Shown: piece after piece, positions 29,966 through 63,827 of the stretch
Layout: each line of letters starts with the position of its first letter
How positions within the stretch are numbered: the stretch's first letter is position 1
Assembly: GCA_023229115.1 (NCBI GenBank)
Contig: JALNZW010000005.1
Coordinates: 23,050-87,049 of the forward strand
DNA: 64,000 nt
Reading direction: 5' to 3'
DNA from: Patescibacteria group bacterium
Lineage (GTDB): Bacteria; Patescibacteriota; Patescibacteriia; Patescibacteriales; UBA12465
Position numbers and translations under genes: made by a program
The notes under the pieces: generated by a model
Databases searched by the model: none
What the model was told of the DNA's origin: nothing
The model's input: the letters and a program-made list of their open reading frames with translations, nothing else

Positions 29966-29970
29966 AAATA

Positions 29971-30840: not shown

Positions 30841-30860
30841 ATCTTTGTTTAAATTAATAA

Positions 30861-31469: not shown

Positions 31470-31494
31470 AATTTTATAAAATTATTTTATATTT

Positions 31495-33396: not shown

Positions 33397-33405
33397 AAAA
33401 ATATT

Positions 33406-34080: not shown

Positions 34081-34093
34081 ATTCTAAATAATC

Positions 34094-34552: not shown

Positions 34553-34555
34553 AAA

Positions 34556-36181: not shown

Positions 36182-36205
36182 ATTTAAATTTTATTATTCA
36201 GAAAA

Positions 36206-37303: not shown

Positions 37304-37319
37304 AATTTATAAATAAACT

Positions 37320-40184
37320 TTAACCAAGTACAGCGGCTGCATTAGAAATCATTTCTTCGTCTTTATCACTTAGTTGTTCTGAATTATTTTTCTGATTAGA
37401 AATGCTTTCTGTCGGTCTTGGCTTGCTAAATGACAATCCCATTAACTCTTCAATTCTTTTTATTATAGCTCTCTCTGGAGCAGAGTCTAGACTTAATTTT
37501 GAATTTTTTAATATTTCATTCAATTTATTAGTAAATTCTTTTTCATTACCAGAAGTGCCAGCCCTTCTTAAGTCATCAGCCAAAGGAGATTCTGTTAAAA
37601 ACTTTTTTAAACTTTCAGAGCTCTCTTCTTTGGTTACCATTTTTCTAACCTCGTCAACTTCAATCTCGGCCATAAACTTAGCCTTGTCGCTCTCCTTGTC
37701 CAGGTGACTCATATCAGCGTCATTTATTATGGCCAGTTTTTTCAAAGAATCATATTCACCCGAAGATCTTAAACTTTCTTTAACTTCTTTTTGTTTTTGT
37801 TTTGGTAAATCATCATAATGAGATTTAAATCTCTTATTAGACATTGTTTTTACTAATGCAGGAATTACAAGCTCCATTGATCCTTTGTCAATATTTTCTA
37901 TTTTTATTGAACCACTAACCACACCTTTAACGATTTTATCACGAGCCTCGTCTTGTCTTTTTTTGAACTTACCATCATCTTCATCTGGTTTTTGAGGAGC
38001 GTTTAAATCAGAAAAATCTCTAGTTAAATGTTGATACTCATTATTTAAAGATCCGTCCAAAGCGTTCATTACTTTATTATCATAACCATAAGAACTTTTA
38101 ATTTTATCACGATGGACAACAGCTTCATTTTGATCAAGCTTACCTCTTTCCATTAAAACCATAGCAGCAGCTGTTCTTTCGTGACCGCTACGAGAATAAT
38201 CATTCATAACGTCTCTAATTTCATTTTCTTTTGAATCTTTAAATCCTTCCTTGGCCTTACTGATTTGACTGTTGTTATGATTAGAAGCTAGGTCAGCATC
38301 AGACTCACCAGCCCTCATTATTTTTTTTCTACCACCAACACCAGCCACACCACCAGTCAAAGCACCGGCTGCTACAGCACCCAGGCCGCCAATAGCCGCT
38401 CCGCCAGTCATAACCGCCAATGTAGTTCCTAGAGCAGCACCTCCAACCCCAGCCAATGCCTTACTTCCAATTTCAGCTCTTCTTTTATTCCTATTCAAGA
38501 TAATTTCTCGTTGTTGAATTTCTGAATCTTTAGCACTGATTTGGCTATTAACATCTTCTAATGGTTTTACTGCAGCCTTGCCATCATCTCTTAATTGTTT
38601 CACTTTAACAGCAACAGCCGTTTCATCGGCATTAACAGCTAAGCCAGCATTTTTCTTCATCATACTTAAATCTGCGCCTACCATTTTTAACTCTTCTTTA
38701 GCTTCTAAATTTCCTGGATTCTTCTGAGTTTCTGCCTGTAACTGATTAAACCTAGTTTGAGTTTGTTCTAAATTATTAGCTTGAGATATCATGGCATCAC
38801 CCTTACCAATACTATCTTTAAACTCAACCTCAATTTTTTTCTTTTTTTCTTCTAAAGCCTTTCTTTGTTCTTTAGCTTCGTTAATTTTTGTTTGAGTTGA
38901 ATTAACACCAAAGGCTCTTTGCATTCCTCTATCAACTAACTGTCTACCCTTGTCAGGAACAGAAGCAATAGCTTTTTTTGCTTTAGACTCAGCCCTCAAC
39001 AAGGCGCCAGCATCTTTTTGAGCCCTCTCCTGTCTAACACCCTCCTTCATTGACTGACGAACCTTCAAAGCATTCTGAGCTCTTTCAATTCCAGTAACTC
39101 TTTTAGTTCCTTTAGAAACAGAATTCATAGCACCACTTCCCATGGCCTGTAATTTGGCCATTCCCTTTCCAGCTACACTTCCTGCCATACCACCCATTTC
39201 CTGAGCAATCATAAGACCACCCAAAAGCATGCCGATAGAAATTATAAATTTAGTAACATTATCTTGACTACCAGCTTCAGTAACAGAAATAGAAAAATTT
39301 TCAGCTCCAATATCACCATTGTCTGGGTTTGAATCTCTTTTCATTTTGTTTATATCTCGACTTCCCTCTACGCCACCCAGAGATGCAAAAGATAACCAAA
39401 TAAAAAAAGCTAAAACTGGTCCAACTATTAAATTTTTAGAAAAATCAGTCCACCATCTTTGTGAGTAAGATTGACCTTGAGGAAAAGAAGCTAGTAAATA
39501 AGCCAAAGGAGATAAAACAACATAAATCCAAATCATGATAATTCTCATGGCTAACATAACTAGCATCGTTAAAATAACCACAACCGATACTATAGAAAAT
39601 ATTAAAGCCAAAATAATTGAGCCTAAAATTGTCCAGCCAGTAACATCCTTGGAATTACTTTGACTAAAACTTAATATCTCAGTAACATTTAACATCGAGG
39701 TAAGATTACCAGCGGCCAAATTTTTAAAACCATTAACAAAGGTCAACATAATCACCTGGGTAACATCAATAAAAACACCGCAGATAAGCTTAGAAAAATT
39801 TATCAAGACAGCCATCAAAACAAGTTTTGGTAACCATGTTTTTAGGTTATACTGTTCAACTCTTAAAATAGTAGCAAAAGCTATTATTAAAAGAATTAAA
39901 ATAAAAAACATATTACAAAGATCTCTCACTAAAGTCCAGCCAAATTTAACAGCATTAGAATCTATAAAATCGTTATACTGAGCGATGCCAATTAAAACAT
40001 AAACTAACATCACCAAGATTTGCCCCAAAACCCAAATGATTGGATATAAAATCCAACCCAAAACAGTAGCCACTGTTTCTCCAACACCAGCATGAACAAT
40101 ATTAGGAAATAAAAAAAAGACACCTAAAAAAAGAAGTAGGGATAAACCAGCAAATATTTTTTTGTTTTTTATTTTTAATTTCAT
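37320..40184 (-). CDS. Large polytopic membrane protein, VirB6/TrbL-like candidate with a long coiled and Gly/Ala-zipper C-terminal half
   Basis: 954 aa. Signal peptide (..NIVHA), about 6-7 TM segments in the first ~330 aa, a glycine-zipper segment (GVGGAALGTTLAVMTGGAAIGGLGAVAAGALTGGVAGVGG), and a charged C-terminus. Confidence 0.62.
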   Translation of the reverse strand: MKLKIKNKKIFAGLSLLLFLGVFFLFPNIVHAGVGETVATVLGWILYPIIWVLGQILVMLVYVLIGIAQYNDFIDSNAVKFGWTLVRDLCNMFFILILLIIAFATILRVEQYNLKTWLPKLVLMAVLINFSKLICGVFIDVTQVIMLTFVNGFKNLAAGNLTSMLNVTEILSFSQSNSKDVTGWTILGSIILALIFSIVSVVVILTMLVMLAMRIIMIWIYVVLSPLAYLLASFPQGQSYSQRWWTDFSKNLIVGPVLAFFIWLSFASLGGVEGSRDINKMKRDSNPDNGDIGAENFSISVTEAGSQDNVTKFIISIGMLLGGLMIAQEMGGMAGSVAGKGMAKLQAMGSGAMNSVSKGTKRVTGIERAQNALKVRQSMKEGVRQERAQKDAGALLRAESKAKKAIASVPDKGRQLVDRGMQRAFGVNSTQTKINEAKEQRKALEEKKKKIEVEFKDSIGKGDAMISQANNLEQTQTRFNQLQAETQKNPGNLEAKEELKMVGADLSMMKKNAGLAVNADETAVAVKVKQLRDDGKAAVKPLEDVNSQISAKDSEIQQREIILNRNKRRAEIGSKALAGVGGAALGTTLAVMTGGAAIGGLGAVAAGALTGGVAGVGGRKKIMRAGESDADLASNHNNSQISKAKEGFKDSKENEIRDVMNDYSRSGHERTAAAMVLMERGKLDQNEAVVHRDKIKSSYGYDNKVMNALDGSLNNEYQHLTRDFSDLNAPQKPDEDDGKFKKRQDEARDKIVKGVVSGSIKIENIDKGSMELVIPALVKTMSNKRFKSHYDDLPKQKQKEVKESLRSSGEYDSLKKLAIINDADMSHLDKESDKAKFMAEIEVDEVRKMVTKEESSESLKKFLTESPLADDLRRAGTSGNEKEFTNKLNEILKNSKLSLDSAPERAIIKRIEELMGLSFSKPRPTESISNQKNNSEQLSDKDEEMISNAAAVLG

Positions 40185-40188
40185 TTAT

Positions 40189-41406
40189 TTATTGAAAAAA
40201 TTGAGATATCCATTCCCAAGCAATATAAGGTGCTAGAAAAAAAGAAATCGGTGGAGTAAGTAACATCATCAAGAAAGCTATTATTATTATAAAAAGATGA
40301 AGAAAGCAGCAACAACCAGTCGCACCTTTTTCAATTACCCCTATTTTATTGCCCATCTCCTTAGCTATTTTAGGAGAAACTTTTTTAATATTGGTCGGAA
40401 CCCATTCTTGCCCTAATTTACAAAACATTTTAGGAGAAACCATTGACAGAAAAGCATGAATATAAACCCAAAAAACAGAAAAAGTTAAGGTAGGAACAGC
40501 ATCCAACCAGGCATTTTTTAAAAGAGTGTCAAAAAAAAGACTCATATCATTTCTTTGCGGTCCTTCGGAAGACTTACTTGAAATCTTAGCTTTGTCTGTT
40601 TTTTCTTTTTTTGATTTATCTTTTCTTTTATCTTCTTCCAGTCTTTGAGAATTGTCCATCTCCTTACCACCCTGTGACTCACTTTTTCCACCCGAAGCTT
40701 GTTCAGTTTCAGATTTTTCTGCATTGCCATCACTTTCTTTCGGCAAGGAATCTGGCATTCTTGATCCCTGTAAACTTTTTGGATCAAAACTTTGAGCGGA
40801 AGAATTACTCTTATCAGGCAAAGAACTATTTGATTTTCCTTTTTCTAAATCTTTTCCTTTTTCGTCTAACTCTTTTTTTAAACTATCATCACCTCTATTT
40901 TCTGATGGTTTAATTTCATTATCAAGTCCTTTCTTATTTTCATCATTTTTATCGGCAGTATCTTTATTTTCAGAGTTTTCATTTTTATCCTTAAGTCCAT
41001 CTAAATTCTCTTGAGCATTGGGATTCTCTGGATTTTCTGGATTCTCTGGATTTTCTGGATTTTCTGGATTTTCTGGATTTTCTGGATTTTCTGGATTTTC
41101 TGGATTTTCTGGATTTTCTGGATTTTTAGAGTCATTCTGATTTTTGTCATTTTTTTTTGCATCCAAACCTCCTTGATTATCTTGAAAGGCTTGCTCTTCA
41201 TTTCCCCCTTTTTTACTATTAGAATTTTCACCAAAGCTTCTGCTTGCGTCTTGGTCTCCAAGGCTTTTATTTTTAGATTCCTGAGCCAAAGAATTGTTGG
41301 AATCTCCAACACTTTTACTAATAGAATCCTTTTCATCTTTTTTAACTTCCGATTCAATTTCTGATTTAATTTTGTCCTCAATTTCTTTATTTATTCCATT
41401 AGCCAT
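40189..41406 (-). CDS. Bipartite protein: low-complexity charged N-terminal region with an (NPE)n repeat, plus a hydrophobic C-terminal membrane domain
   Basis: 405 aa, first gene of the cluster. C-terminus has TM helices and a CCC motif (GATGCCCFLHLFIIIIAFLMMLL). Confidence 0.62.
   Translation of the reverse strand: MANGINKEIEDKIKSEIESEVKKDEKDSISKSVGDSNNSLAQESKNKSLGDQDASRSFGENSNSKKGGNEEQAFQDNQGGLDAKKNDKNQNDSKNPENPENPENPENPENPENPENPENPENPENPENPNAQENLDGLKDKNENSENKDTADKNDENKKGLDNEIKPSENRGDDSLKKELDEKGKDLEKGKSNSSLPDKSNSSAQSFDPKSLQGSRMPDSLPKESDGNAEKSETEQASGGKSESQGGKEMDNSQRLEEDKRKDKSKKEKTDKAKISSKSSEGPQRNDMSLFFDTLLKNAWLDAVPTLTFSVFWVYIHAFLSMVSPKMFCKLGQEWVPTNIKKVSPKIAKEMGNKIGVIEKGATGCCCFLHLFIIIIAFLMMLLTPPISFFLAPYIAWEWISQFFQ
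41021..41119 (-). repeat. In-frame 9-nt tandem repeat, 11 copies (ggattYtct; encodes Asn-Pro-Glu)
   Basis: Eight consecutive perfect ggattttct units, plus three flanking units of which two are the variant ggattctct, counted directly in the sequence. Confidence 0.9.
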
Positions 41407-44139: not shown

Positions 44140-45387
44140 TTATTTTTTAATAAACTTTTTAACTCCTCGGCCATCGGAGGTTTGAATTTTTAGCATATAC
44201 ATCCCCGTGGGTAAAGACGAAATGTCTAAATTTTCGGTGTTACTGTTAAAATTAAAATCCATTACCTGAGCTCCAATAACATTATAAACAGCCCCTTTGG
44301 CAGAATTAATTGGACTGTTTGGGAGTTGTAAATAAATGTTATCAGTAGCGGGATTGGGGTAAAGCTTAACTTCTGATGAAATATCATTAATGCCATCAAC
44401 TGAATTGGTAGAATCTGGTTTTATTTCATACATAATTCCTCCATAACAGGAAAGAAACAAGCGACCAGTTTCTTTTTCAAAAAAACCATCCATAACGCTT
44501 GTCACAGGATACTCTCCATAACCAGGATAAGAATCCATTAAATCAGTCGCTACACCCGTGCTAACTTTCAAATGTTTAATCCCCAGGTTACTGTAAATAA
44601 AAACATTATCATTGTCCTTGACAACAATATTCATGCCACCACAACCATCAAGGGTATAAATTTTATCCAATTGGGAGTCAGTATCGTTCCAACGATACAA
44701 ATAACCCTCGTCAGTTGGAATAAAAAAGGTTTCCAAATCAACGGAATGAATTTCTTTAGCCCATCCTTTATCTAGATCAAAAGATGCTATCTCCTGAATT
44801 GAGCTTCCATTATAACGAAAAAGTTTGTTTATAGCCATGTAATTACCTTCACCCCCCATGGAACCAAGAATTAAAACATTGTTTTCATTAATAACAAAGC
44901 AATGCTGGAAACCAACCTCATTGTTTATAGCCAGTTCTGTAAAATTACTTGAACCATCCCATAAATAAAGAGCGGAATTATCGTAAGTGCAAATATAAAT
45001 CTTATTTTCTGAATAAACAAATGTAGCACTAGGAGATTGTATTGGAGATGAATAAAAATCCCAAGCTTTATCATTATCATCCCAAAGATAAGATTTATAA
45101 GCAGTGCTAAAGCTGGCAAAAATTTCTCCACCAGTTTTAGTAAAAGCATGCATCTGACCCCACTGATTAGAGTTAGGAATTTGAACCCCGCCCCATTGAC
45201 TGCCATTGTAGTAAAGTCCTTCACCGGTGGTAAAAGCTAAAATTTCTTCACCGGAAACAAAAATGTTAGTAAATACACTTATCCCAGTTTCATGAATTTT
45301 ATCTAAATAAAATTCCTGGGAAAAAACAGTAAAGCTTAAGCTCATCAGCCCAAAAGCTAACAACAAAGTAATCATCAATTTTTTCAT
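44140..45387 (-). CDS. Secreted repeat (probable beta-propeller) protein with a T9SS/Por C-terminal sorting domain
   Basis: Signal peptide MKKLMITLLLAFGLMSLSFTVFSQ. Recurring L-[YF]-x-[WY]-[ND]-G blades. C-terminus VKLYPNPATDNIYLQL...LPTGMYMLKIQTSDGRGVKKFIKK matches the TIGR04183-type CTD pattern. GGAGGA SD 7 nt upstream. Confidence 0.8.
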   Translation of the reverse strand: MKKLMITLLLAFGLMSLSFTVFSQEFYLDKIHETGISVFTNIFVSGEEILAFTTGEGLYYNGSQWGGVQIPNSNQWGQMHAFTKTGGEIFASFSTAYKSYLWDDNDKAWDFYSSPIQSPSATFVYSENKIYICTYDNSALYLWDGSSNFTELAINNEVGFQHCFVINENNVLILGSMGGEGNYMAINKLFRYNGSSIQEIASFDLDKGWAKEIHSVDLETFFIPTDEGYLYRWNDTDSQLDKIYTLDGCGGMNIVVKDNDNVFIYSNLGIKHLKVSTGVATDLMDSYPGYGEYPVTSVMDGFFEKETGRLFLSCYGGIMYEIKPDSTNSVDGINDISSEVKLYPNPATDNIYLQLPNSPINSAKGAVYNVIGAQVMDFNFNSNTENLDISSLPTGMYMLKIQTSDGRGVKKFIKK

Positions 45388-45474: not shown

Positions 45475-48400
45475 TTAATTACAAGTCGGCAAAGCACCTT
45501 TGATGTCGTCTTCATTGCATTTTCCCGGATTCAAATTATCACAAGCAACTGAAAAAGGATTTTCAAAATAAGCGGTAGTCTCTGGAGAAAACAAAGAACC
45601 ACAACAATATCTATAACAAGAATCGGAAATATTAGCAAAGACACCCATACCCGCACATTTAAAGAAATTCCAATTATCAATAACTTTAATAAGCACCATA
45701 TATTGTCCGGGAGACAAGAATTTAACCAAACGATGAGGGTTTGATTGATCCGGACGATGGTCAATATTACTTAAAACAATGCTGTTTTGACTCCAATCTT
45801 CATCTACTTTTTTTATTTTAATATACAACTTCTTGATTGGTCCTTGCTCACCATCAACAAAGGTATTGAAAGATAAAGTATAAAAACCACCAGCAACTAT
45901 ATTATAAACATTAGAAGGAACACCATCACCGTTATCAATTTGATTTATCGGTCCATTAGGCCCACTCATTTTAACATTTTCAATTTGAGGATAAATAGCA
46001 CAAAGAGCTTTATCATTTTCACGTGGAGGACAACCATCACCACAAGGATCAGCTGCATCCTTGAAAGGCGGAGAATTGCCGGCATCAGCTAGGTGTGAGT
46101 AATTAACATAATCAAACTTTGCAAAAATATTCTTTAAAGCCGTCACAACAGTCATTCCAGTGCCATAATTATCAGAATATCTTTGATTTGTGTGTACAGA
46201 AAAATCATTACTAAATTTAATTTTTCCGGTGTCAGTATCATAATAAAGAGACTCACAGGAATTTTTATAAGCAGCCCCTGAATTAGTATAAATAGCGTTA
46301 CCTAGACCAGAACAAGAATAAGGCAGACCATAAAGGGAGTCATCTCCTAGCTTATTAACATAAACATTAACATTATCTCCCGGTCTAACAGTTGAATTAA
46401 TAGCACCAAAAGGAGCATTCTTTGAACCTAAGGTATAGTAAGTAAAATAAAAAGGTAAAGAAGTGGCGTATTCTTTCAAATTATAAGATGAGGACTTTAA
46501 TCTCTCTACCCAAGGAACCTCACCTTGGATAATAACATTACACTTAGGAGTGTAATTTTCTGGATCCATCAAACAAGCACCGTTTCGAAGATCGCCTTCT
46601 CCACCAAAACCTGCTGTACATTTACTTAAAGGACAAGAATCATTTCCACTGCCTGTTGGAAAAAATTCTGTGTTATCACCATAAATGCCACTATCACACT
46701 CTCTTTCGGTTAAATTGTAAGCCAAAATTTTAAGACCATTTTTTATTTCTGGACTTTCCGGATTGCTAGAATTCATACTATGTATACCATCTGATTTATA
46801 CCAACCAGCACCAACACTTGGAACCAAGTGCTTGCTAGTATTAGAACACTCAAAATGATCATTACACCTAGCACCATTAGGAGTATAAGGGTCTAATGTC
46901 ACTGGATAAGAGCCATAAGCTGGGCCATCACAAGTGCCTCTGTTAGCATTTCGATTGGAAATTAAACTTTGACTATGAATAGAATTTCCAACCACAGATA
47001 TTATTCTATTATTTAAAAGATCACTCCTTGGTTCCATCCACTGAAAAGAAACCCAAGCACATCGTTCCCAGGAACAAGCTATATTACCACCATCAGGATA
47101 ATCAAAATCATCTATACAATCTCTAACATCACTCCTAGTAACACCGCTAGTTGTGCTACTATATTTGCCTTTACTTTCATAAACATTATAGTTTATATCG
47201 GGATAATTAACTACACTACTATTAGCTATAGAAATAAATTTTCTATTATAAGTTGAATTATCACAACTGTCATTGCAAGAATACCAATGCCTTGAGTGAT
47301 AACCAATATCATCATCCTCTTGATCAGCAAAAAACACATCTCTATACTCAACTAAATCAAATTTAGCATTCATGCTAGCACAATAAGAAGGACTGCTTCC
47401 AGTTGAGGGATAACCAGAAAAATTAGTAGACAAAGTGTCATTACTACTACCAACAACCGAATCAACTGGATACCACATCAAACAAACATTTTCATTTAAA
47501 GGATCTTTCTCTAAACAATAACCCTCCCAACCCTGCTCAACAAAACTATAACCTTTAGTATCACTAGAACAAGAAATACTATCTTGCTTAGGGTATAGCC
47601 TACAAGAAGCTGGGATATAATTTTCTTCACCTGCTTCTAAGACAGGCTCAATGTTAATATCATCTACATACATCCAACCATTGACACCGCTGTCTGATGG
47701 CCCTAAAACTATTTTTGACCCACCGACCCAAGAAGAATCAGTTCTAAATTTAAAGGTAACTCTCTGCCAATCTTTTTTACTAACATCAACCATCAAATCT
47801 ACAGAATTCAAATCTGTCTCTTCATCATTTAAATCAAGTCCTACAATCTTTCCTAAAGATATCTTGTCTGTATCTTGTTGAGGATAACTTAAATTAGCTG
47901 TATTTATTAAAAAATTAATAAAATAATCTGTTTGAATTGAAGTTGGAATTTCATTAGACTTAAAATTCCATTCACAAGAATTACCACCAATTCTAATAAA
48001 ACCAAAATTAGAAGGGGAAGGATAAACGGGACGACCTGGCGTAGCCTCTTCACTAAGAGTGTCAGCAGACTTTAAAATAAGACAGCTATTATTAATACTA
48101 GATCCAGAGCTTTCCCAAGAAATTAAATCTGGTGAATTTTCAAAATCATTTTCAAACACAGAAGAATTCCCCCTTTGAATCATGGCATCAAAATAATAAT
48201 GGTTAAGAAGTGAATAACCGCTGACATTAGCATCCTTTGCAGAATCAAAACCTCTATTACCAGGAATTGATTTTGAAAAATTCAAACAATTACCACTAGA
48301 ATCCATGGAAGTACATTGACCTATTTGTAAACAAACATTTTTATCGTTTCCTTTTTCATCTTTTTCAGTAGTGTAAGAATAACAAGACAACCATTTACCA

Positions 48401-51400
48401 CAAACCCTGTCTGGGCTAACTTTAATAATTTTATTAGCATCTTTATAGTCACTATCCTTAGAAGGATTATATTTATCATAATTACTAGAGTCATAAGTCA
48501 ATCCACTATAGTTAGGGTAATCACCAAGAACAGTCCTTTCGTTAAACAAAATACAACCCCTATTAAACTCTGGGAAGTTACAAGTAGAAAAGTCTAGGTT
48601 ATTTTTTATCTTATAGTCAACAATCAACTCTCTCCACTCTAAAGAAATGTCATTAATTCTAGTTGTTGGACTTATTTCAATTACCAACTCACAGTCATTT
48701 GACAAATTGTTAGCTGAGTAAAAAATAAACTTAGAAGCATAAATAGGAGAATATTGCGCTAATGGCTGAATGTTATAAAAAGAAGAGCCTGGAATAAAAT
48801 TTAAAATATTAGCTGAATTTAACTCATAAAAAGGATTCTCACATTTAACTCTTAGACTTCTTATGTTCTTATACTCCACAGAATAAAGCTTATTTGGCTC
48901 TAGGAAATAATTTGATTGTTTAAAATAATAAGACGAACTTGTTTGAGTGCAAGATATTTGATCATTATTATTAACTGAACATTGCTGACCAGGTACATTG
49001 GTTTTACCATTAGCTGCTACTGGTGACCAACCATCAAAATAAACACCATCGTCATCAATATCAGAAAAATTAGAATTAGAAATTAAATTAGGATTAAAAG
49101 AACTTTCTGGATCTATATATTCAGTACAACTAGAATCTTTTAAAGGACAAAGACCAGACCAATTAACACTACCAGTTTGGTGATTAGGCAGACCGACAGT
49201 TTGGTAATAAGGTTGACTAACCAATGCTCCTTCGTTTCCAATAGTTTTTATAATACCATAATTAGAATCAACCGAGCACAGATAATTAGTTTCGTCCAAC
49301 TTACAAACCCTTCCATTTAAACAATCAGAATCAGAATTACAAGGATCTGGCAAAGAACTAATTGGCATATCAGCCTCAAAAATTTGATTAGGCAGCAAAC
49401 ATCTTTTTACTTTTTTAACATACCATTTATTATCTACAAGCTGACAAACGTTATCCATTGGATCTTTAAAATAGCTATCTCCAGCTGAAGATGACCAAGA
49501 ATCACAGCCAATAGCCTCTTCAGCGCAAAGTATACCCTGGTCGTATTTATCAGGATTATTTTTAAGATAAATATTTTGATAAACATAACTGGAAGAAAGA
49601 GAGTAAACATTGGAAACGGCCTTCCCCAAAAGAGAACATCCCTTATCAGCTGCATTACAAATTTTGGCATTATCATAAACAACCAAAGAAAAATTATCTC
49701 TCGGAATTTGAACACAATCTTTAGAATCAACAGGACAAGACTTTAAATCATTTCCCAAGTTTCCTGACAAGAAAAGATTACTTTCTTTAGGGGTGGAATT
49801 GTGAGTATCAATCATCAGTTCACAGCCAACGGCCGATTCATCACACAATTTGGTAAACTGCCTTAAATAATGTTTGTTATTAGAACGATCTAAATAAGCC
49901 GAGCAACCCAAATTGTAATTTGCACCCTGATATTTGGAAGTTTGATCGTAGTAACAAATATTAGGAGTTTTCCAAGAGTTTTTAATTAAATAATACCTGT
50001 TGGCTGACTCAGATAAAATTAAATCATCAATATAAACAATGTTAGTGCTAGTATTTTTGATAACAATTTTTTCACCAGAATCGATATCATGATTTAATTC
50101 GTCTAAGGAAATTCTGTAAACCTGCCAAGCAGAACCTTTTATAGAAATATTATTAACACTCTCTCCATTTACAGGACTTATAGTTTTAAAGTTAGATATA
50201 TCACCCTTTGAATTTATAAAATAAATTTCCAAATCAGAACTAATGTCAATATTCTTGTCAGTATTCTTGCCATGATTTCTGGCCAAGAAACTTAACAAGT
50301 ACGGCCTTCCTTTTACTAATCCAGAAATAGACCTATTAGACTCAGATGATGGATTTATTCTCATTGATCTTCCATTGTTGCTTAGGGAGGTTTCAGAGCT
50401 TACTCCACCTTGCCAGCCGGAGACATCTTGTTCAAAATCATATGAAGTAACAATCCTAACATTGCTAGCTGTATTTCCTCCATATTCACGACAATAATTT
50501 TCAGAAGAGGAACAGGATTTTCCCTCGCCAGGAATAGCTTTATAGACACAAGCTTGCTGTCCTTCATCCCAAATTCCACCATTTAAACAATGAAAACAAA
50601 CAAAGCCATCAACAGAGTCACTAATCTCATAATCATCTACGGTAGCAGTCGCCCACTTAGCAACAACCTTGCCACTAGCATTTAGATTAGAGCATTCAGT
50701 GGCTTCAGTAATATCTTTGTTTATATTTCTCTCCGTCATTCTATAAAGCGTACATTTATCAGAACAAGTTATAGTTTTTGAATATAAAACATAAAAAATA
50801 TCACCTGCCTGATTATACATTTCTCTACAATCTGAACTGTATCTAGGATTAGAGGGGTTTAATTTTATTATTTCACTACTACAAACATCGACTCCGCCAA
50901 TTATATGCTTATAAGAACCACCATCAGAAAATAAATTTCCTTCAGTTAAAGAGGGTTGGGAATTCTTAATTGACAAATTAAACGATCTTAATTGATATCC
51001 GCTTTCATCATTTCCCTCCCAAGAATAAAAACTAGAACAAGTTCCTTCATTTGGTTTTATACATTGTCTTAGATAAGAATAATATTCGACTCTCTCTCCT
51101 CCACTAGATAAGTCTTCTAAGTTTGTAAACTCTGTACAACCAGCACTATTGGCTGAACATTTTTTAGCTGTAGTTGGTATAAGTCTGTGCGGCGAATCAC
51201 TTTCAAATATGGTAGATTTTTGGATATAAACATTGTAACCATCACACTCAGCTGGACAATAATCTTTGTCCATAGCTTTGGCTGGAATATTTCTACCATC
51301 AGCCATCTTAAATAAATCACAACCAAGTTCATTAAAATTACAAAGTCGAGCATAACGATAACATTCGGCTGGAGCATTAGATTTTAAAGTAAAATTAGGG

Positions 51401-53916
51401 TTAGTGGTAGAATAAGGATCTGTATAACAAGCTTCTTTTAAATAATCTGGAATTGTTTTAATATAAACCAAGCCATCACCTCTATAATCAGAATAAAAAG
51501 TACCAACAGCACCTTTCTCTAATTTTAGTTGATCAAAAGAACACTGAGCATTGGAGCCAACATTTATTTTGAAAACAACATCAGAACCAATTTGACTATC
51601 AGAATAAGAATAGGAAACACTTTGATAAGAAAAATCATTAGAAGGAGGAATTGTTTTATAATCAGCGACAGACATATCAGCTATAGAAGCGGTTGAAGTG
51701 GCTGTACACTTAGCATAAAAAGAAAGAGTAAAGGTCTCTCCTTTTAAAAAGTTATTATCTGGACCAATTGAGGCTAGTCCACTTAAAACATCACCACTTT
51801 CCAATACCAAACCACGACTACCATCATAACCAACACTATCTTTAATTTTCCCCTCACTAAAATAAGACTCCCAACCTTCATCAGATTCAAAATTTCCATT
51901 TGTTATAAAATTATGACCAAAACCAGATTTAGTTCTAATAAATTCATTACATCCCTCAGAACCAGATGAACAATTTTCTGCCTTTCTGTTTAAGTTTATT
52001 AGATTGTCAGAATTCCAAAAAACCTTAGCATTCTTAATATCATAAGAACCAAAGGTAGAGTATATACTACAACCAGCATTACTAGCATCACAAGGACTAT
52101 ATTGAATAGTATTTTTAAGTAAAGCTAATTTTTTACCAGAATAATTTTTAAAAGACTCACAAGTATTAAAAACAGCTGGACAAGAATCACTATTAAAATT
52201 CCAAGTTCTTTTTTCCTCAGTACAGTATCCATAAAATTGACAAGACCCGTCTCCAGCCTCTTTAACGCAAGATCTCTCATCGGCACAATAAGAATCACTT
52301 CTAACCACAAGTATTTCTTCACTGCCTTCACTTATAATATTACCATCACCATCTTTGGTTTCTGGTGTAGAAATAGTCTGAGTTGATAAAATATGTCCAC
52401 CATAACCCTGACGAGCACAATAATTCATTGGAGCTTTTAATACCCAGTGAGGGTCAACCAAGCCACGGCACCAAGTCATTTCACTTGCATTATTTGGATC
52501 ATGCGGAAAGTTTTTACTGAATTGATTATATTCATCATCATCACTAAAACAAGAAAGCATATCCATAATAGTGTATTGACCAGAATTAGATTTTTGAAGA
52601 GGTGTAATTCTATTTAAAGCCTCTTCCCAAGCTATAGGCACTATGCGAAATTTTCTTAAAATCATTAAGGACCTCCTGTTTAAGGTTCTTTGATAATCAC
52701 CTTTTTCTGAAAAAAGTAAACCAGCTGAAATCGAACCACCTTCAATAGCTTCTATTAAGGTGTTTTTATTTTCAATTGCCCTACCAAAAGACTGACCAAT
52801 AACACAATTATTTGGACCACTGTAATTATTTTCACTATTACAAATCATTAACTCTGCTAAAATACTATAATCAGTTTTTTCCGTAAATTTTGGAGTTAAA
52901 ACTTTCTTTAAAGTTTCTGACAACCCTGCTCTTGTATATAAGGAAGATGGGTCAACTTCAGAAGAAGCTACATCAGAATAACCAAATGGACTAGTTACCT
53001 CATCTTCACCAAACCAACTATAAGAACCTTCAGAATAAGATTTCAAAAGCGAATTAATTGTCGACAACAAAAGTTGATTAGAAAAAATATTAACAGCATC
53101 AACAAAAATATCACCAGTGGTTTGACCAAAGGTTTTAGTGGCCAAATCTCTAGTTTGATCTACCTCCCCTTCTATAGCCCCTGGGACAGATTCTTGTTTA
53201 CCACCAATACTTCGAACATCCAACCAGCCTTTATTAAACGTTAGTTGAGTTTCCACTTTTTCTTTTTCCTCATTTCCTTTTTCTAAAATTTTATCCAACA
53301 AACTCATAGTTATGCCAATGTCACTGGCAGCTGGATCAATTGAAGCAACAATCTGGTCTAAAAATTTTTTAGGATCTTTTGCATAAGACTCCCATCTATC
53401 AAATTCACTTTTCCAACCATCTTTCATTTGTTGCCAACCACAACTAGGCTCAACTGGTCGATAATTATGAGTTAAACCAAGACCAATTTTAGTTTTAATA
53501 TTTATATTAGGCTCACAAAAATTAAAATCCCACTCTTCACCTAAAAGATCTAAAGCCTCTCCAATAGCTGCATCTCTAATATTATCACCATATTTTGTCC
53601 AATAATCAGTTTCCCAGGTTGGCTTTTGACCACCTATTCCTGTTCCTAAATAAACAGCCCCATCATAAGCCAAGGTAAATAAAGAAGATTTTAAAGCTGA
53701 CTGAAACATGTTAGCACCCATTTTAACCAAAAATTTATCTTTATTTTTTTCTACCCAATCAGTAACCTTTCTAACAACAGCCACTGGACCACCTATTATA
53801 TCAGAAAAAGCCTGAGCCTTAGTTGGAAAAAAAGAAAAACTAAACACAAAAGAAAATAATAAAAAAAACAAAACGCCTTTCTTGAACTTCGACTGAGTAG
53901 AATTATTGTTAGTCAT
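45475..53916 (-). CDS. Giant (2813 aa) secreted Cys-rich modular protein
   Basis: Single uninterrupted ORF. Signal peptide ...FFPTKAQA. At least nine C-x5-(G)C-x-[EDSL]-[FYLMW] motifs. Four N-x-x-F-E/S...W module starts (NGNFESDEGW, YDFEQDVSGW, NSNFSDIDDDGVYFDGW, FENDFENSPDLISW). Confidence 0.85.
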   Translation of the reverse strand: MTNNNSTQSKFKKGVLFFLLFSFVFSFSFFPTKAQAFSDIIGGPVAVVRKVTDWVEKNKDKFLVKMGANMFQSALKSSLFTLAYDGAVYLGTGIGGQKPTWETDYWTKYGDNIRDAAIGEALDLLGEEWDFNFCEPNINIKTKIGLGLTHNYRPVEPSCGWQQMKDGWKSEFDRWESYAKDPKKFLDQIVASIDPAASDIGITMSLLDKILEKGNEEKEKVETQLTFNKGWLDVRSIGGKQESVPGAIEGEVDQTRDLATKTFGQTTGDIFVDAVNIFSNQLLLSTINSLLKSYSEGSYSWFGEDEVTSPFGYSDVASSEVDPSSLYTRAGLSETLKKVLTPKFTEKTDYSILAELMICNSENNYSGPNNCVIGQSFGRAIENKNTLIEAIEGGSISAGLLFSEKGDYQRTLNRRSLMILRKFRIVPIAWEEALNRITPLQKSNSGQYTIMDMLSCFSDDDEYNQFSKNFPHDPNNASEMTWCRGLVDPHWVLKAPMNYCARQGYGGHILSTQTISTPETKDGDGNIISEGSEEILVVRSDSYCADERSCVKEAGDGSCQFYGYCTEEKRTWNFNSDSCPAVFNTCESFKNYSGKKLALLKNTIQYSPCDASNAGCSIYSTFGSYDIKNAKVFWNSDNLINLNRKAENCSSGSEGCNEFIRTKSGFGHNFITNGNFESDEGWESYFSEGKIKDSVGYDGSRGLVLESGDVLSGLASIGPDNNFLKGETFTLSFYAKCTATSTASIADMSVADYKTIPPSNDFSYQSVSYSYSDSQIGSDVVFKINVGSNAQCSFDQLKLEKGAVGTFYSDYRGDGLVYIKTIPDYLKEACYTDPYSTTNPNFTLKSNAPAECYRYARLCNFNELGCDLFKMADGRNIPAKAMDKDYCPAECDGYNVYIQKSTIFESDSPHRLIPTTAKKCSANSAGCTEFTNLEDLSSGGERVEYYSYLRQCIKPNEGTCSSFYSWEGNDESGYQLRSFNLSIKNSQPSLTEGNLFSDGGSYKHIIGGVDVCSSEIIKLNPSNPRYSSDCREMYNQAGDIFYVLYSKTITCSDKCTLYRMTERNINKDITEATECSNLNASGKVVAKWATATVDDYEISDSVDGFVCFHCLNGGIWDEGQQACVYKAIPGEGKSCSSSENYCREYGGNTASNVRIVTSYDFEQDVSGWQGGVSSETSLSNNGRSMRINPSSESNRSISGLVKGRPYLLSFLARNHGKNTDKNIDISSDLEIYFINSKGDISNFKTISPVNGESVNNISIKGSAWQVYRISLDELNHDIDSGEKIVIKNTSTNIVYIDDLILSESANRYYLIKNSWKTPNICYYDQTSKYQGANYNLGCSAYLDRSNNKHYLRQFTKLCDESAVGCELMIDTHNSTPKESNLFLSGNLGNDLKSCPVDSKDCVQIPRDNFSLVVYDNAKICNAADKGCSLLGKAVSNVYSLSSSYVYQNIYLKNNPDKYDQGILCAEEAIGCDSWSSSAGDSYFKDPMDNVCQLVDNKWYVKKVKRCLLPNQIFEADMPISSLPDPCNSDSDCLNGRVCKLDETNYLCSVDSNYGIIKTIGNEGALVSQPYYQTVGLPNHQTGSVNWSGLCPLKDSSCTEYIDPESSFNPNLISNSNFSDIDDDGVYFDGWSPVAANGKTNVPGQQCSVNNNDQISCTQTSSSYYFKQSNYFLEPNKLYSVEYKNIRSLRVKCENPFYELNSANILNFIPGSSFYNIQPLAQYSPIYASKFIFYSANNLSNDCELVIEISPTTRINDISLEWRELIVDYKIKNNLDFSTCNFPEFNRGCILFNERTVLGDYPNYSGLTYDSSNYDKYNPSKDSDYKDANKIIKVSPDRVCGKWLSCYSYTTEKDEKGNDKNVCLQIGQCTSMDSSGNCLNFSKSIPGNRGFDSAKDANVSGYSLLNHYYFDAMIQRGNSSVFENDFENSPDLISWESSGSSINNSCLILKSADTLSEEATPGRPVYPSPSNFGFIRIGGNSCEWNFKSNEIPTSIQTDYFINFLINTANLSYPQQDTDKISLGKIVGLDLNDEETDLNSVDLMVDVSKKDWQRVTFKFRTDSSWVGGSKIVLGPSDSGVNGWMYVDDINIEPVLEAGEENYIPASCRLYPKQDSISCSSDTKGYSFVEQGWEGYCLEKDPLNENVCLMWYPVDSVVGSSNDTLSTNFSGYPSTGSSPSYCASMNAKFDLVEYRDVFFADQEDDDIGYHSRHWYSCNDSCDNSTYNRKFISIANSSVVNYPDINYNVYESKGKYSSTTSGVTRSDVRDCIDDFDYPDGGNIACSWERCAWVSFQWMEPRSDLLNNRIISVVGNSIHSQSLISNRNANRGTCDGPAYGSYPVTLDPYTPNGARCNDHFECSNTSKHLVPSVGAGWYKSDGIHSMNSSNPESPEIKNGLKILAYNLTERECDSGIYGDNTEFFPTGSGNDSCPLSKCTAGFGGEGDLRNGACLMDPENYTPKCNVIIQGEVPWVERLKSSSYNLKEYATSLPFYFTYYTLGSKNAPFGAINSTVRPGDNVNVYVNKLGDDSLYGLPYSCSGLGNAIYTNSGAAYKNSCESLYYDTDTGKIKFSNDFSVHTNQRYSDNYGTGMTVVTALKNIFAKFDYVNYSHLADAGNSPPFKDAADPCGDGCPPRENDKALCAIYPQIENVKMSGPNGPINQIDNGDGVPSNVYNIVAGGFYTLSFNTFVDGEQGPIKKLYIKIKKVDEDWSQNSIVLSNIDHRPDQSNPHRLVKFLSPGQYMVLIKVIDNWNFFKCAGMGVFANISDSCYRYCCGSLFSPETTAYFENPFSVACDNLNPGKCNEDDIKGALPTCN

Positions 53917-53939
53917 AATAATATTTATAAACTTTTAAT

Positions 53940-54557
53940 TTATTGTTGGCTTGATTGCATGGTTTGATAAAGAGATTGTTGATAAATATTTAACAGCTCC
54001 TCATCACTAATCAAATCTATCTCCTCTTGACTAAAGCCAGCCTCGATCAATTGTTTTCTAAGTTCTGAAGGAGATATATCATAAAATTGACTTATACTTT
54101 CTGGGTCCAATACCTGACCAGACAACGAATTGTCAATATTTGGAACAAGCTCATTGCTAGTTGTTTGATTTTCACTTGAGACAGAAGAGGAACAATTTTG
54201 TCCCTGCGGACAAAGAGGATCGGTTTTATAAACAAAAAGCTCCTCATAATCAGTTAAATTATCTCCATCTGTATCTTCTAAATAAGGAGAAGTTCCATGA
54301 ATAAATAATTCATCCCAATCAGAAATAGTATCTCCATCAGTATCAACTAATTTTAAATCTAAATTATCAGAGCTCAAATTATCGCCACCAGAACAATTTC
54401 CATCAGCACAAGAAGATTCTTGTTCGCCGGAGCTTTCTATTATGGGTATAACAAAAGGTTTTTTAATATCATTTCTCAAGTTAATAAAAAAAATAATAAT
54501 AACCAATAAAGAAAAAACACCCAAAATACTTAAAGCTACTTTACGCTCTTTATCCAT
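53940..54557 (-). CDS. Membrane-anchored protein with thrombospondin type-3-like Ca-binding repeats
   Basis: 205 aa. N-terminal TM helix. DTDGDTISDWDE and DTDGDNLTDYEE repeats. 23-nt gap to the giant gene. Confidence 0.7.
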   Translation of the reverse strand: MDKERKVALSILGVFSLLVIIIFFINLRNDIKKPFVIPIIESSGEQESSCADGNCSGGDNLSSDNLDLKLVDTDGDTISDWDELFIHGTSPYLEDTDGDNLTDYEELFVYKTDPLCPQGQNCSSSVSSENQTTSNELVPNIDNSLSGQVLDPESISQFYDISPSELRKQLIEAGFSQEEIDLISDEELLNIYQQSLYQTMQSSQQ

Positions 54558-57939: not shown

Positions 57940-58191
57940 TTACTTTTTCTCTTCTTTCATAGAAATAGCCTTAACTGGACACTCCTTGGCACATAAACCA
58001 CAGCCCTTACAATAATCATAATCAATTTTAGCTTTAACCTTACCCTTAATCTTGGCTAGCCTAGCAGCCCCATCTGGACAAATCTTAGCACAAAGACCAC
58101 AAGCTATGCATTTATCAACATCTATCTCGGGACGATACGATCTCCAAGAGCCAGTTTTATTTTCTAAAGAAGAATTTGGCTTAACTATCAT
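57940..58191 (-). CDS. porD: 2-oxoacid (pyruvate):ferredoxin oxidoreductase delta subunit (2x[4Fe-4S])
   Basis: 83 aa. CIACGLCAKICP and CKGCGLCAKECP. Confidence 0.85.
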   Translation of the reverse strand: MIVKPNSSLENKTGSWRSYRPEIDVDKCIACGLCAKICPDGAARLAKIKGKVKAKIDYDYCKGCGLCAKECPVKAISMKEEKK

Positions 58192-59653: not shown

Positions 59654-60418
59654 ATGAAAATAATTTCCTGGAACGTTAATGGCTTAAGGGCTGTGCTCAA
59701 AAAAGACTTCATCAGCTTTTTAAAAAAAGAAAATCCAGATATTTTGGCCCTACAGGAAATAAAAATATCAGAAGAAAAAATAAATTTAGAAAATTTTAAT
59801 TTTCCAAATTATCAACAATTCTGGAATCCAGCCAAAAGACCAGGATATAGTGGAACTTTAATTTTATATAAAAATAATTTAAAAATATTAAACAAAAAAA
59901 ATGGCCTTGGCTTAAAAAAGTTTGATCAAGAAGGGAGACTACAAACGATTGAAACCAAAGATTTCTACTTATTAAATATTTATTTTCCAAACTCCAATGA
60001 TTTATTAAGTCGATTACCTTACAAGATTGACTTTAATCAAGAAGTTTTAAAATATTTAAAAAAATTGAATAAAAAAAAGCCGGTTATAGCCACTGGAGAT
60101 TTCAATGTAGCTCATCAAGAAATAGATATCGCCAGACCAAAGCCTAACGAAGGTAAGGCAGGCTTTACCAAGGAAGAAAGAAGTTGGATGACTGAATTAC
60201 TTCAAAATAACTTTATTGATTCTTTTAGAAGTTTAAACCCTACAAAGATACAATATTCTTGGTGGAGTTATCGAGCTGGCGCTCGGAAAAAAAATGTTGG
60301 TTGGAGAATAGATTATTTTATAAGTTCTAAAAAATTATTAAAAAAAATAAATAAAGCTTACATCCTTGACCAAGTCTTAGGATCTGATCATGCTCCGATT
60401 GGACTAGAGCTAAAATAA
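59654..60418 (+). CDS. xth: Exodeoxyribonuclease III
   Basis: 254 aa. MKIISWNVNGLRA, LQEIK, GDFNVAH and SDHAPI motifs. Confidence 0.93.
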   Translation: MKIISWNVNGLRAVLKKDFISFLKKENPDILALQEIKISEEKINLENFNFPNYQQFWNPAKRPGYSGTLILYKNNLKILNKKNGLGLKKFDQEGRLQTIETKDFYLLNIYFPNSNDLLSRLPYKIDFNQEVLKYLKKLNKKKPVIATGDFNVAHQEIDIARPKPNEGKAGFTKEERSWMTELLQNNFIDSFRSLNPTKIQYSWWSYRAGARKKNVGWRIDYFISSKKLLKKINKAYILDQVLGSDHAPIGLELK

Positions 60419-61584: not shown

Positions 61585-61722
61585 ATGATTAATTCCATCA
61601 AAAAAATAATTAAAAAAGGACACGAACATAGAATTACTGGTTGGCCATACTTCTTCATCATGATGTTCTTTTTAATTTTTATGATGCAACTTATAATGTT
61701 AATTATTTTACTTAAACAATAA
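61585..61722 (+). CDS. Possible 45-aa tail-anchored micro membrane protein
   Basis: ATG..TAA ORF not in the supplied track (MINSIKKIIKKGHEHRITGWPYFFIMMFFLIFMMQLIMLIILLKQ). 4-nt gaps on both sides. Confidence 0.3.
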   Translation: MINSIKKIIKKGHEHRITGWPYFFIMMFFLIFMMQLIMLIILLKQ

Positions 61723-61726
61723 AAGT

Positions 61727-62926
61727 ATGATTAAAAAATGTTTAAAAATATTTATTGTATCTTTGTTTCTTTTTAATTTTTCTATATCATTGGTTTCTGC
61801 TGAAGATGAAACAAGAAGTTATAGCGATCCTATAATTTTTGAGCCTCAGGTCACTATTCCTGGCTCTAACTTTATAAAAGGAGAACCATATGAAATGGAG
61901 AGCAATACCACCACTTTAGCTAAATATGTTAAAGCTATCTATGATTATCTTTTATCTATTGTTGGTATAACAGCTGCTATCGTTTTAATGATTGGTGGTG
62001 TGATGTGGTTAACTGCTGGTGGAAGCAGTGAAAGAGTGGGGCAAGCTAAAAGCTGGGTTAGCGGTAGTTTGACGGGTTTAGTACTGGCCTTAACCTCATA
62101 TTTAATTATGCAAACTATTAATCCTCAATTGGTTAGTTTTACTGCCACCGAAGTTCCGGAAATAAAACCAGCGGTTTATGGCTGTTGTTCTTTTGACAAT
62201 TCTTTAGGAGTTCCTAACGCAAGACTAATATCAGACATAGAATGCTACAGAATATATACAAGTGAAACCGTCAAAGAACAAATACCAGTACCGCCAACAG
62301 TTGCTAGTGGTTCTGAAACACTGAGTCAATATATCAAAAAACAATATGCCGGTGATTTGTCATCATATTTAAACGCTGGAATGGAACGTTTTAATAAAAC
62401 AAAAAAACCAAATTACAGAACTAGAAAATGTGAAGATATGTATTATTGCCACATATTCAAAGAAGAAGACCGCTGTGACGAATTCGGATGTATCAAGGTT
62501 ATTACAACCAATATACTAGTAGAAACCACTCCTCAAATATGTGAGGATTTTGATGGTGGAATTGTGACAAAAGAACAGTTAGAAGAAAATTCAAGCCTAA
62601 AAACACTATTAGGGCAAACATGTGCCGGAAGAGAAGGATCGAGTTGTAATGAATCTTCGTCAACTTATTGCTATTGCATAAATGGCAATGCTTTCTTAGG
62701 GAAAGGCCTGGCAACTGAACCCTGCGGAAATGATGGCGGAATTTGTGTGCCAACAGGTACATACCCAGGTGGATTAAAAGATGCAAACGGTAACGGAGAT
62801 TATTGTGAGTCAACTTGGTATGGTGGTATAAAAAGAGATAGAGGTGGTAGAAGCTGTGGTGATAGTTTAAGTTGTTGTCGTCCAAATTATATTCATTTAA
62901 ATTATAAAGAGTTAATGGGCTTATAA
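61727..62926 (+). CDS. T4SS-pilin-like (TrbC/VirB2-like, CPR type) protein with a ~260-aa Cys-rich C-terminal extension
   Basis: Signal peptide ..SLVSA. The pilin-like core LAKYVKAIYDYLLSIVGITAAIVLMIGGVMWLTAGGSSERVGQAKSWVSGSLTGLVLALTSYLIMQTINPQL has two TM helices. The extracellular tail has many Cys residues. Confidence 0.72.
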   Translation: MIKKCLKIFIVSLFLFNFSISLVSAEDETRSYSDPIIFEPQVTIPGSNFIKGEPYEMESNTTTLAKYVKAIYDYLLSIVGITAAIVLMIGGVMWLTAGGSSERVGQAKSWVSGSLTGLVLALTSYLIMQTINPQLVSFTATEVPEIKPAVYGCCSFDNSLGVPNARLISDIECYRIYTSETVKEQIPVPPTVASGSETLSQYIKKQYAGDLSSYLNAGMERFNKTKKPNYRTRKCEDMYYCHIFKEEDRCDEFGCIKVITTNILVETTPQICEDFDGGIVTKEQLEENSSLKTLLGQTCAGREGSSCNESSSTYCYCINGNAFLGKGLATEPCGNDGGICVPTGTYPGGLKDANGNGDYCESTWYGGIKRDRGGRSCGDSLSCCRPNYIHLNYKELMGL

Positions 62927-62930
62927 AAAT

Positions 62931-63773
62931 ATGAAAAAAGAAATAAAAAAAATATCATCAGGTCACAATGCTTGCGCTGGTTGCGGGCAATTATCAGCGG
63001 TTCAATCTGTAATGCGAGCCTTAGATAAAGACACTATTATTGCCAATGCCACTGGTTGCTTAGAAGTTACTACAACTCCTTACCCCCAAAGTGCTTGGAG
63101 TCTTCCTTGGATACATTCTTTATTTGAAAATCCAGCTGCTGTCGCTACTGGAATTTTAGCTGCCTTAAAGAAACAAAAAAACCAAAAAACCAAGGTCGTA
63201 GTAATGGCTGGCGACGGGGGAACATTTGATATTGGCATGGGAGTTATTAGCGGTATGTGGGAAAGAAAAGAAAATATATTGTATATTTGTTATGACACAG
63301 AGTCATATTCCAATACTGGCTTTCAAGCTTCAGGTGCCACTCCATATGGAGCCTCAACTAGTACCTCGCCTAAAGGCAATCAAGAAAAATGCCAGATAAA
63401 AAAGAGCTGTGATTTAATTAACAAAACAGGCAACCACTTGCAAAAAAAAGACATGATTAGAATTGCCCTTGCTCACGACGTGCCTTATGTTGCTCAAACA
63501 ACAGCTGGTTATCCTAATGACATCTATAACAAAGTAAAAAAAGCTTTAGAAATAAAAGGGCCAGCCTATATCCAAATTTTAGCACCTTGTATTCCTGGCT
63601 GGGGAATTAAAACCGATGAAGCGGTAGAGGTCGGAAAATTAGCTAATCAAAGTAATTTTTATCCTTTACTTGAATACCTAAACGGAGAATTAATTTCTGG
63701 TGGATTAAATTCGGAAGAAACAGCTGAAAAGCATAAAGAAACATATATAAAAAAACAAGGTAGATTTAAATAA
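62931..63773 (+). CDS. porB: 2-oxoacid (pyruvate):ferredoxin oxidoreductase beta subunit (TPP-binding)
   Basis: 280 aa. GHNACAGCGQ and the TPP motif VVMAGDGGTFDIGMG. Confidence 0.9.
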   Translation: MKKEIKKISSGHNACAGCGQLSAVQSVMRALDKDTIIANATGCLEVTTTPYPQSAWSLPWIHSLFENPAAVATGILAALKKQKNQKTKVVVMAGDGGTFDIGMGVISGMWERKENILYICYDTESYSNTGFQASGATPYGASTSTSPKGNQEKCQIKKSCDLINKTGNHLQKKDMIRIALAHDVPYVAQTTAGYPNDIYNKVKKALEIKGPAYIQILAPCIPGWGIKTDEAVEVGKLANQSNFYPLLEYLNGELISGGLNSEETAEKHKETYIKKQGRFK

Positions 63774-63791: not shown

Positions 63792-63827
63792 AAAAAAAGA
63801 ACACTAGCCATTAGTGTTCTTTTTTGT
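63792..63827 (+). terminator. Rho-independent terminator
   Basis: gaacacta-gccat-tagtgttc followed by a T-run. Confidence 0.7.

Follow-up and report, generated by a model that had tools for sequence, protein, structure and literature searches.

Contact with host cells is a necessity for Patescibacteria. Few parts of their envelope have been shown to be essential in a cultivated member, and VirB2-like pilins are among them: epibiotic growth of Ca. Southlakia epibionticum requires the predicted pilin subunits of its type IV secretion system (T4SS) cluster (PMC10633639). VirB2-like pilins and VirB4 are found together in 1,948 Patescibacteria assemblies; the pilin lies near virB4 in 1,135 of these and not near it in 813 (PMC12102498). 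Here we analyse a stretch of 64,000 nucleotides from the genome of an ultra-small bacterium of this group (assembly GCA_023229115.1, contig JALNZW010000005.1, positions 23,050 to 87,049), hereafter the window. It encodes a 399-aa pilin-domain protein which, together with a 45-aa micro-open reading frame (micro-ORF), lies between porA and porB, the genes for the alpha and beta subunits of a 2-oxoacid:ferredoxin oxidoreductase (POR), a core enzyme of fermentative energy metabolism. On balance we favour the view that the 399-aa protein is a modular VirB2-like surface pilin, which would be folded oxidatively by a neighbouring DsbA-like protein and expressed from the por transcript.

The locus can be set against several described systems. 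As in other PF18895 pilins of Patescibacteria, the protein exceeds the threshold of this Pfam family and combines a signal peptide with a two-helix hairpin, and the window also holds a monoderm-type T4SS-like cluster with PrgI and VirB4. It differs in being encoded within a por operon rather than beside virB4 or in a pilin array, in bearing a 255-aa orphan cysteine-rich C-terminal domain (C-domain) and in its pairing with a DsbA gene and a leader-like micro-ORF. With the conjugative pilins VirB2, TrbC and TraA (PF04956) it shares two hydrophobic helices, a short polar loop and a leader-bearing precursor, long conserved leaders being typical of such pilins. However, the similarity to TrbC is sub-threshold (14.8 bits against a cut-off of 27.9, E 0.033), no solved pilin is matched, and the protein is 3-4 times longer owing to the C-domain and lies outside any T4SS locus. 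The modular type IV pilin PilB of Streptococcus sanguinis likewise joins a conserved pilin module to a surface-displayed C-terminal functional or adhesive module (PMC8179133), but its pilin fold is unrelated and its assembly machine is that of type IV pili rather than a T4SS; the likeness is analogy, not homology. Lastly, the canonical archaeal-type porGDAB operon, exemplified by a Bathyarchaeia locus (L045) with contiguous G-D-A-B order, has the same four subunits, all of them intact in the window. Here, however, porG and porD lie on the opposite strand behind dsbA, and porA and porB are parted by the micro-ORF and the pilin; in relatives one or two pilins, and at times mobile small genes as well, lie between them. 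Annotators should therefore be warned that porA and porB are non-adjacent in this clade. The separation, including its exact coordinates, is as a sequence-only reading of the window had described it.

The protein family itself is already known and the gene already labelled, an identical protein being deposited in NCBI as 'pilin [Patescibacteria group bacterium]'. What appear to be undescribed so far are the clade-wide por-embedded orthogroup, its orphan cysteine-rich domain, the conserved DsbA partner and the leader-derived micro-protein. We found no paper linking pilins to por in the Candidate Phyla Radiation (CPR) in the literature searched, and the survey of Patescibacteria pilins mentions neither a por-operon site nor a cysteine-rich C-domain, a DsbA pairing or a leader-like micro-ORF (PMC12102498). 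The comparison thus defines a distinct orthologous group of pilins, encoded within the POR operon near a DsbA gene and bearing lineage-specific, predicted disulfide-rich domains without a fold match.

A pilin hairpin carrying an orphan cysteine-rich domain

The pilin assignment proposed from the letters alone was borne out by a profile search: residues 65-129 match PF18895 (T4SS_pilin) with 29.4 bits (gathering cut-off 26.6, E 8.6e-7), covering profile positions 6-69 of 71, and most homologues have a precomputed match to the same family. An AlphaFold2 model built on a 26-sequence alignment comprises an N-terminal signal helix (residues 2-26, at a low predicted local distance difference test score, pLDDT), a helix-loop-helix hairpin and, beyond a short linker modelled with low confidence, a compact C-terminal domain, in agreement with the topology that had been proposed. 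Hydropathy peaks at residues 5-26 and 68-99, the first being the hydrophobic segment of the signal peptide. The hairpin consists of helices 61-96 and 101-131 joined by the loop AGGSSERVGQAK and ends in TINPQL. All of the motifs that had been quoted are present, namely GG..W.T.GG......AK at residues 90-108, QTINPQL at 129-135 and five cysteine motifs.

Of the 19 cysteines, one is in the signal peptide and 18 lie between residues 153 and 384, so that every cysteine of the mature protein (18/18) falls within the C-domain; nine are invariant over 26 family members. Modelled alone, the C-domain reaches a pLDDT of 86.4 and a predicted template modelling score (pTM) of 0.77. Nevertheless, it has no Pfam match, Foldseek found no match in the PDB (best E 1.2) or BFVD (best E 0.15), and phmmer against 1.84 billion cluster representatives returned four matches, all from its own family, and no outside relatives. 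A possible kinship with modules of the giant protein encoded at 45475-53916 was not borne out either, as no ORF of the window was matched by hidden Markov models (HMMs) built from the entire C-domain or from its C-terminal cysteine module. Hairpin identity across the family is 54-87%, excepting the most distant member (40%), whereas C-domain identity is 18-41% for relatives other than the closest one. This contrast points to a conserved membrane or assembly module carrying a fast-evolving exposed one. Moreover, three proteins that match over the hairpin part only bear peptidoglycan-hydrolase domains (P0077, PF00959 with PF18895; P0076, PF02557; P0089, PF01551), and the hairpin can therefore act as a carrier.

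We propose that the 399-aa protein would be exported by Sec and its signal peptide removed, and that the hairpin would stay in the membrane, either as an anchor or as a unit passed on to the T4SS-like machinery encoded 20 kb away, with the C-domain exposed outside the cell. Its fast evolution is as would be expected of a surface binding or host-contact module. If so, the C-domain is a candidate host-contact module, and its rapid divergence could follow the range of hosts.

A less likely alternative is that the hairpin is a mere two-helix membrane anchor of a secreted cysteine-rich protein, never polymerised and independent of any T4SS, 'pilin' being the name of a family and not a function. The C-domain exceeds the hairpin 2.5-fold in size, the same hairpin is fused to enzymes in relatives, the TrbC similarity is under threshold and the gene lies 20 kb from the VirB4/PrgI cluster, all of which suit such an anchor. 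However, the hairpin, its loop and the flanking motifs F.PQVTIPG, WLT.GG and TINP.L are conserved far beyond a simple anchor's needs, and PF18895 genes lie near virB4 in 1,135/1,948 assemblies (PMC12102498). Moreover, the window's T4SS-like cluster itself lacks a pilin gene. Neither Pfam searches of the cluster ORFs and of other small and large ORFs nor two HMMs run against six-frame ORFs of at least 40 aa, one of the family and one a broad pilin model of 150 sequences, found another pilin in the window, in line with the statement that this is its only pilin-type gene. The distance of about 20 kb that had been given was likewise accurate: the cluster ends 20.3 kb upstream of the pilin gene, which is thus not beside virB4 or other T4SS genes.

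A membrane DsbA-like protein as probable oxidase

The gene next to porG encodes a DsbA-like protein with a basic N-terminus, one transmembrane segment and a CPYC motif, for which the positive-inside rule suggests an extracytoplasmic orientation. It adjoins porG in every relative whose contig extends far enough. On the strength of this conserved adjacency, the protein is a probable oxidase of the cysteine-rich pilin domain, which could be stabilised by up to nine disulfides. If true, the two are a candidate pair of oxidase and substrate by which organisms without quinones could form disulfides. A second DsbA paralogue, 28% identical, sits in the T4SS-like cluster.

Several points weigh against the proposal of an oxidatively folded surface pilin. 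One relative (L036) retains dsbA beside porG although it has no pilin between porA and porB, and the DsbA-pilin pairing is therefore not exclusive. The link to VirB2/TrbC appears weak: no solved pilin was matched by sequence profile or by a Foldseek search of PDB folds, a hairpin profile retrieved only chance-level FXYD transmembrane matches among PDB sequences, and similarity to the pilin-like model NF045849 of a Mycoplasma integrative and conjugative element is marginal (E 0.041). By our estimate, a 28-kDa domain on each subunit may fit a VirB2-type filament poorly. Export, surface exposure, disulfides, pilus assembly and binding are drawn from sequence and a structural model. Finally, retention directly after porA throughout the clade exceeds what would be expected of mere hitch-hiking.

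Conservation and inheritance of the arrangement

Scanning GTDB species representatives with PorA yielded 40 loci, 30 of which are informative Patescibacteria loci with PorA 53-89% identical. One or two pilin-domain genes directly follow porA in 28/30 of these, and the pilin lies ahead of porB in 19/19 loci with porB also on the contig. All retrieved homologue contigs have the pilin between porA and porB, at full-length identities from 73% down to 29%, and two hairpin-only matches (P0042, P0064) are likewise por-embedded, as pilin pairs. The flanks are conserved, with dsbA, porG, porD and xth on one side and, in most, rnhA, recJ and lepA on the other; porD adjoins porG in all relatives examined. 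The por-embedded pilins are all cysteine-rich, with 10-28 cysteines and, in one 970-aa protein, 60. The exceptions are two Patescibacteria loci (L035, 959-3290; L036, 505-5507) with PorA 53-55% identical, where porA lies by porB without a pilin, as it does in the Bathyarchaeia locus outside the phylum. In L036 a 69-aa cysteine-rich zinc-ribbon-like ORF is found between porA and porB.

This breadth bears on whether the interval might be an artefact, that is, a spurious ORF, a pseudogene or an assembly error. Nothing favours this beyond the unusual position, and its probability is negligible: at least 6 independent contigs, drawn from several sources of data, encode an identical protein, about 40 full-length homologues exist, cysteines are invariant in the family, the micro-ORF is under purifying selection and synteny is kept across dozens of assemblies. 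Such conservation refutes an artefact.

The more similar the PorA proteins, the more similar the hairpins (Spearman 0.70, n=30), and the GC content (0.33-0.39) falls inside or near the ranges of porA (0.27-0.40) and porB (0.37-0.39). Co-divergence with PorA and unremarkable GC argue for vertical inheritance, and the comparison indicates that the arrangement is an old operon architecture of a Falkowbacteria-containing Patescibacteria clade. A recent horizontal insertion is ruled out by the same observations and by the clade-wide layout, and the earlier description of the genes as 'inserted' does not hold as a local event. The sequence-only reading had also considered that relatives might carry the intervening genes as an unrelated operon member with a known function; the relatives do share these genes, but a known function was not found for them. 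The porA-pilin fusion that L042 seems to show is an artefact caused by a run of masked N.

In nine loci porB is immediately followed by one or two additional pilins (Table 1). This class of ~360-580 aa mostly has an N-terminal domain of ~160-300 residues with 8-16 cysteines (16 in most) before the hairpin, which is the reverse of the layout of the window protein, and is absent from the window's own lineage. In L044, one copy of this type also lies ahead of porB.

Extra genes were observed at several por loci (Table 1). Between pilin and porB these are toxin-antitoxin-like genes (a faint DUF2283 match included), an AAA ATPase and other small genes, and bAvd/23S-rRNA-IVP-like genes are inserted between porD and porA in relatives. 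The split por locus thus resembles a hotspot of insertion. In several lineages cargo is therefore tolerated between porA and porB, yet the pilin stays next to porA.

That retention raises the question of whether the whole block, dsbA-porGD and porA-micropeptide-pilin-porB, is an integrated unit in which making a disulfide-rich surface appendage is coupled, by mechanism or by redox chemistry, to pyruvate:ferredoxin oxidoreductase. POR might, for instance, be anchored at the membrane by the micro-peptide or the hairpin, or a quinone-independent route might lead from extracytoplasmic disulfide formation to ferredoxin. Such coupling would explain the near-universal position after porA in the clade (28/30 species-level lineages), and it is in keeping with dsbA next to porG, the tight junctions and the 20-residue basic cytoplasmic head of the micro-peptide, which could contact a soluble partner. 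However, the pilin is predicted to be in or outside the membrane except for a loop of ~12 residues, the unrelated xth has the same junctions, and the C-domain varies too much to have a conserved partner enzyme. Moreover, toxin-antitoxin-like, AAA ATPase and other genes part the pilin from porB in several lineages, and a subunit-like stoichiometric coupling is therefore not required; a pilin is missing from the porA-porB arrangement of two related Patescibacteria lineages and of a Bathyarchaeia genome. We consider this coupling improbable, although evidence of a physical or redox link to POR would make the locus far more interesting.

All four POR subunits carry their characteristic domains (POR_N and PFOR_II, TPP_enzyme_C, POR, Fer4) in Pfam and NCBIfam. 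The best NCBIfam models for alpha and beta are PorA_Arch and PorB, both under their equivalog cut-offs (PorA_Arch: 8.2e-122, 406.8 bits, cut-off 550). These models place the enzyme among the 2-oxoacid:ferredoxin oxidoreductases and do not fix its substrate.

Expression from the por locus

The plus strand reads xth, porA, 45-aa ORF, 399-aa ORF and porB, with the dsbA-like gene, porG and porD on the minus strand, divergent from xth. The four junctions are each exactly 4 nt, as had been noted, and read TAA-AAAT/AAGT-ATG. Within the 64 kb the string TAAAARTATG is confined to these junctions, with 4 occurrences against a chance expectation of 1.46; 5/100 shuffles reach 4. In the whole window, same-strand gaps of at most 6 nt are found in 10/36 cases, a Shine-Dalgarno (SD)-like motif in 5/43 genes, and leaders are A/T-rich. 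We therefore rejected the idea that the junctions are exceptional, as they are typical for a compact, SD-poor genome.

No plus-strand promoter-like site was found between 60848 and 62930, and the sole convincing terminator of the unit is the 14-pair hairpin after porB. An Rfam search of the region (E up to 1) gave no match, and a structured RNA was rejected. Co-transcription, which the sequence-only reading had put forward, is plausible given the lack of an internal promoter-like site, the terminator and the junctions, and together with translational coupling it is the simplest reading that we infer from the sequence. In our proposal, the pilin gene would have no promoter of its own and would be transcribed with xth, porA, the micro-ORF where present, and porB, its translation probably proceeding by termination-reinitiation in an SD-poor genome. 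The por position would thus tie pilin expression to a highly expressed core operon, and the pilin would have no catalytic role in POR.

A leader-like micro-protein

The micro-ORF product has a 20-residue basic head, one transmembrane helix (WPYFFIMMFFLIFMMQLIMLIILL) and ends in KQ. Its 29-residue core, (I/V)TGWPYFFIMMFFLIFMMQLIMLIILLKQ, is present in nine distinct lineages, and the five database clusters that contain it are all unnamed. Among nearer relatives synonymous sites approach saturation (pS 0.5-0.99) and pN is 0.01-0.16, and the pN/pS of 0.02-0.2 indicates a real coding gene under purifying selection. It is more conserved than the adjoining pilin.

In lineages without the micro-ORF (PorA 55-63% identical), the por-embedded pilin opens with a leader such as MKKFPKILIITFFSIFILQMICLIILL. 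This leader aligns gap-free with the micro-ORF helix, and the micro-ORF HMM scores 21.8 bits (E 1e-4; best noise 13.7 bits). Composition-preserving shuffles of the micro-ORF against Q-type pilin leaders gave z=9-10 for L020 and 3.4-6.7 for four others, compared with z<=1.9 for the control, the ordinary signal peptides of other por-embedded pilins. The micro-protein and the sister-lineage leader are thus probably homologous, related by either a split or a fusion. In the lineage of the window micro-ORF and pilin are separate genes and the pilin starts with a conventional signal peptide, whereas other lineages have them fused. In other words, the micro-protein looks like a pilin leader living as a separate gene. 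By Rosetta-stone logic, this split-versus-fused pattern suggests that micro-protein and pilin hairpin work as partners in the membrane, and in our proposal the micro-protein would be a single-pass membrane peptide doing so. A frameshift or readthrough joining the micro-ORF to the pilin is unlikely, as the frames differ and the pilin has a complete signal peptide.

Other features of the window

Table 1. Positions of por-locus, pilin and T4SS-like features. Positions are those of the window; those behind an L number are of that locus.
Feature	Position	Strand	Basis
porD, delta subunit, 83 aa, 2x[4Fe-4S] ferredoxin-like	57940..58191	-	Pfam Fer4 2.7e-17, Fer4_21
porG, gamma subunit, 191 aa	58197..58772	-	Pfam POR PF01558, 4.9e-39
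Membrane-anchored DsbA-like thiol:disulfide oxidoreductase, 262 aa	58784..59572	-	Pfam Thioredoxin_4 4.4e-25, DSBA 1.4e-16
xth, exonuclease III-like, 254 aa, opens plus-strand unit	59654..60418	+	Pfam Exo_endo_phos 6e-27
porA, alpha subunit, 385 aa	60423..61580	+	Pfam POR_N 1.8e-70, PFOR_II 1.4e-21
Micro-ORF, 45 aa	61585..61722	+	ORF list, homologues, pN/pS
Pilin-domain ORF, 399 aa	61727..62926	+	Pfam PF18895
Predicted signal peptide of the 399-aa protein, residues 1-25	61727..61801	+	Predicted cut after VSA, read from sequence
Conserved N-terminal motif F.PQVTIPG and VirB2-like two-helix hairpin, residues 36-140	61832..62146	+	PF18895, AlphaFold2
Orphan Cys-rich domain, predicted extracellular, residues 145-399, 18 Cys	62159..62923	+	AlphaFold2, homology searches
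porB, beta subunit, 280 aa, thiamine pyrophosphate-binding	62931..63773	+	Pfam TPP_enzyme_C 2.6e-18, NCBIfam PorB 6.9e-94
Hairpin, 14 pairs, between A-runs and T-runs; likely bidirectional terminator	63793..63825	not assigned	Terminator-like site
T4SS-like cluster (PrgI, VirB4-like)	28556-41406	-	Pfam
RadA/Sms-like ATPase	28556-29965	-	
Second membrane DsbA-like gene	29971-30840	-	
VirB4-like protein, TraG P-loop part, 633 aa	31495-33396	-	
VirB4-like protein, TraC-like part, 224 aa	33406-34080	-	
PrgI/VirB3-like	34094-34552	-	
Post-porB pilins	L007 8003-9358; L016 8021-9424; L018 8176-9480; L034 7817-9232		
Post-porB pilins	L038 8257-11182; L044 7295-8383 and 9181-10923		
Extra por-locus genes	L020 7967-8424; L021 4976-5487, 6629-7873; L023 3040-3429, 4224-5128		
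Extra por-locus genes	L027 2089-3058; L039 8142-8649; L052 2498-2878; L053 3392-3775		

In the T4SS-like cluster, the VirB4-like protein appears split in two, and four large ORFs (541, 365, 954 and 405 aa) have no Pfam match. An IS481-type transposase with an rve integrase core and helix-turn-helix domains lies beside the cluster (27022-27966, minus strand). Two ClpB-like AAA+ paralogues are encoded within 4 kb (19021-21729 and 23142-25802, minus strand), the first without a Clp_N match.

A 415-aa protein (44140-45387, minus strand) ends in the C-terminal sorting domain PF18962 of the type IX secretion system (58.4 bits, cut-off 27). A Patescibacteria genome should lack this system, and the sorting domain is therefore unexpected. 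The giant ORF of 2813 aa has a single CBM_4_9 match and is followed by a 205-aa TSP3-repeat protein, the two together spanning 45475-54557 on the minus strand. A comparable trio of giant ORF, TSP3-repeat protein and RsmA also lies beside the por locus in the distant relatives L008 and L009, and this neighbourhood is therefore conserved as well.

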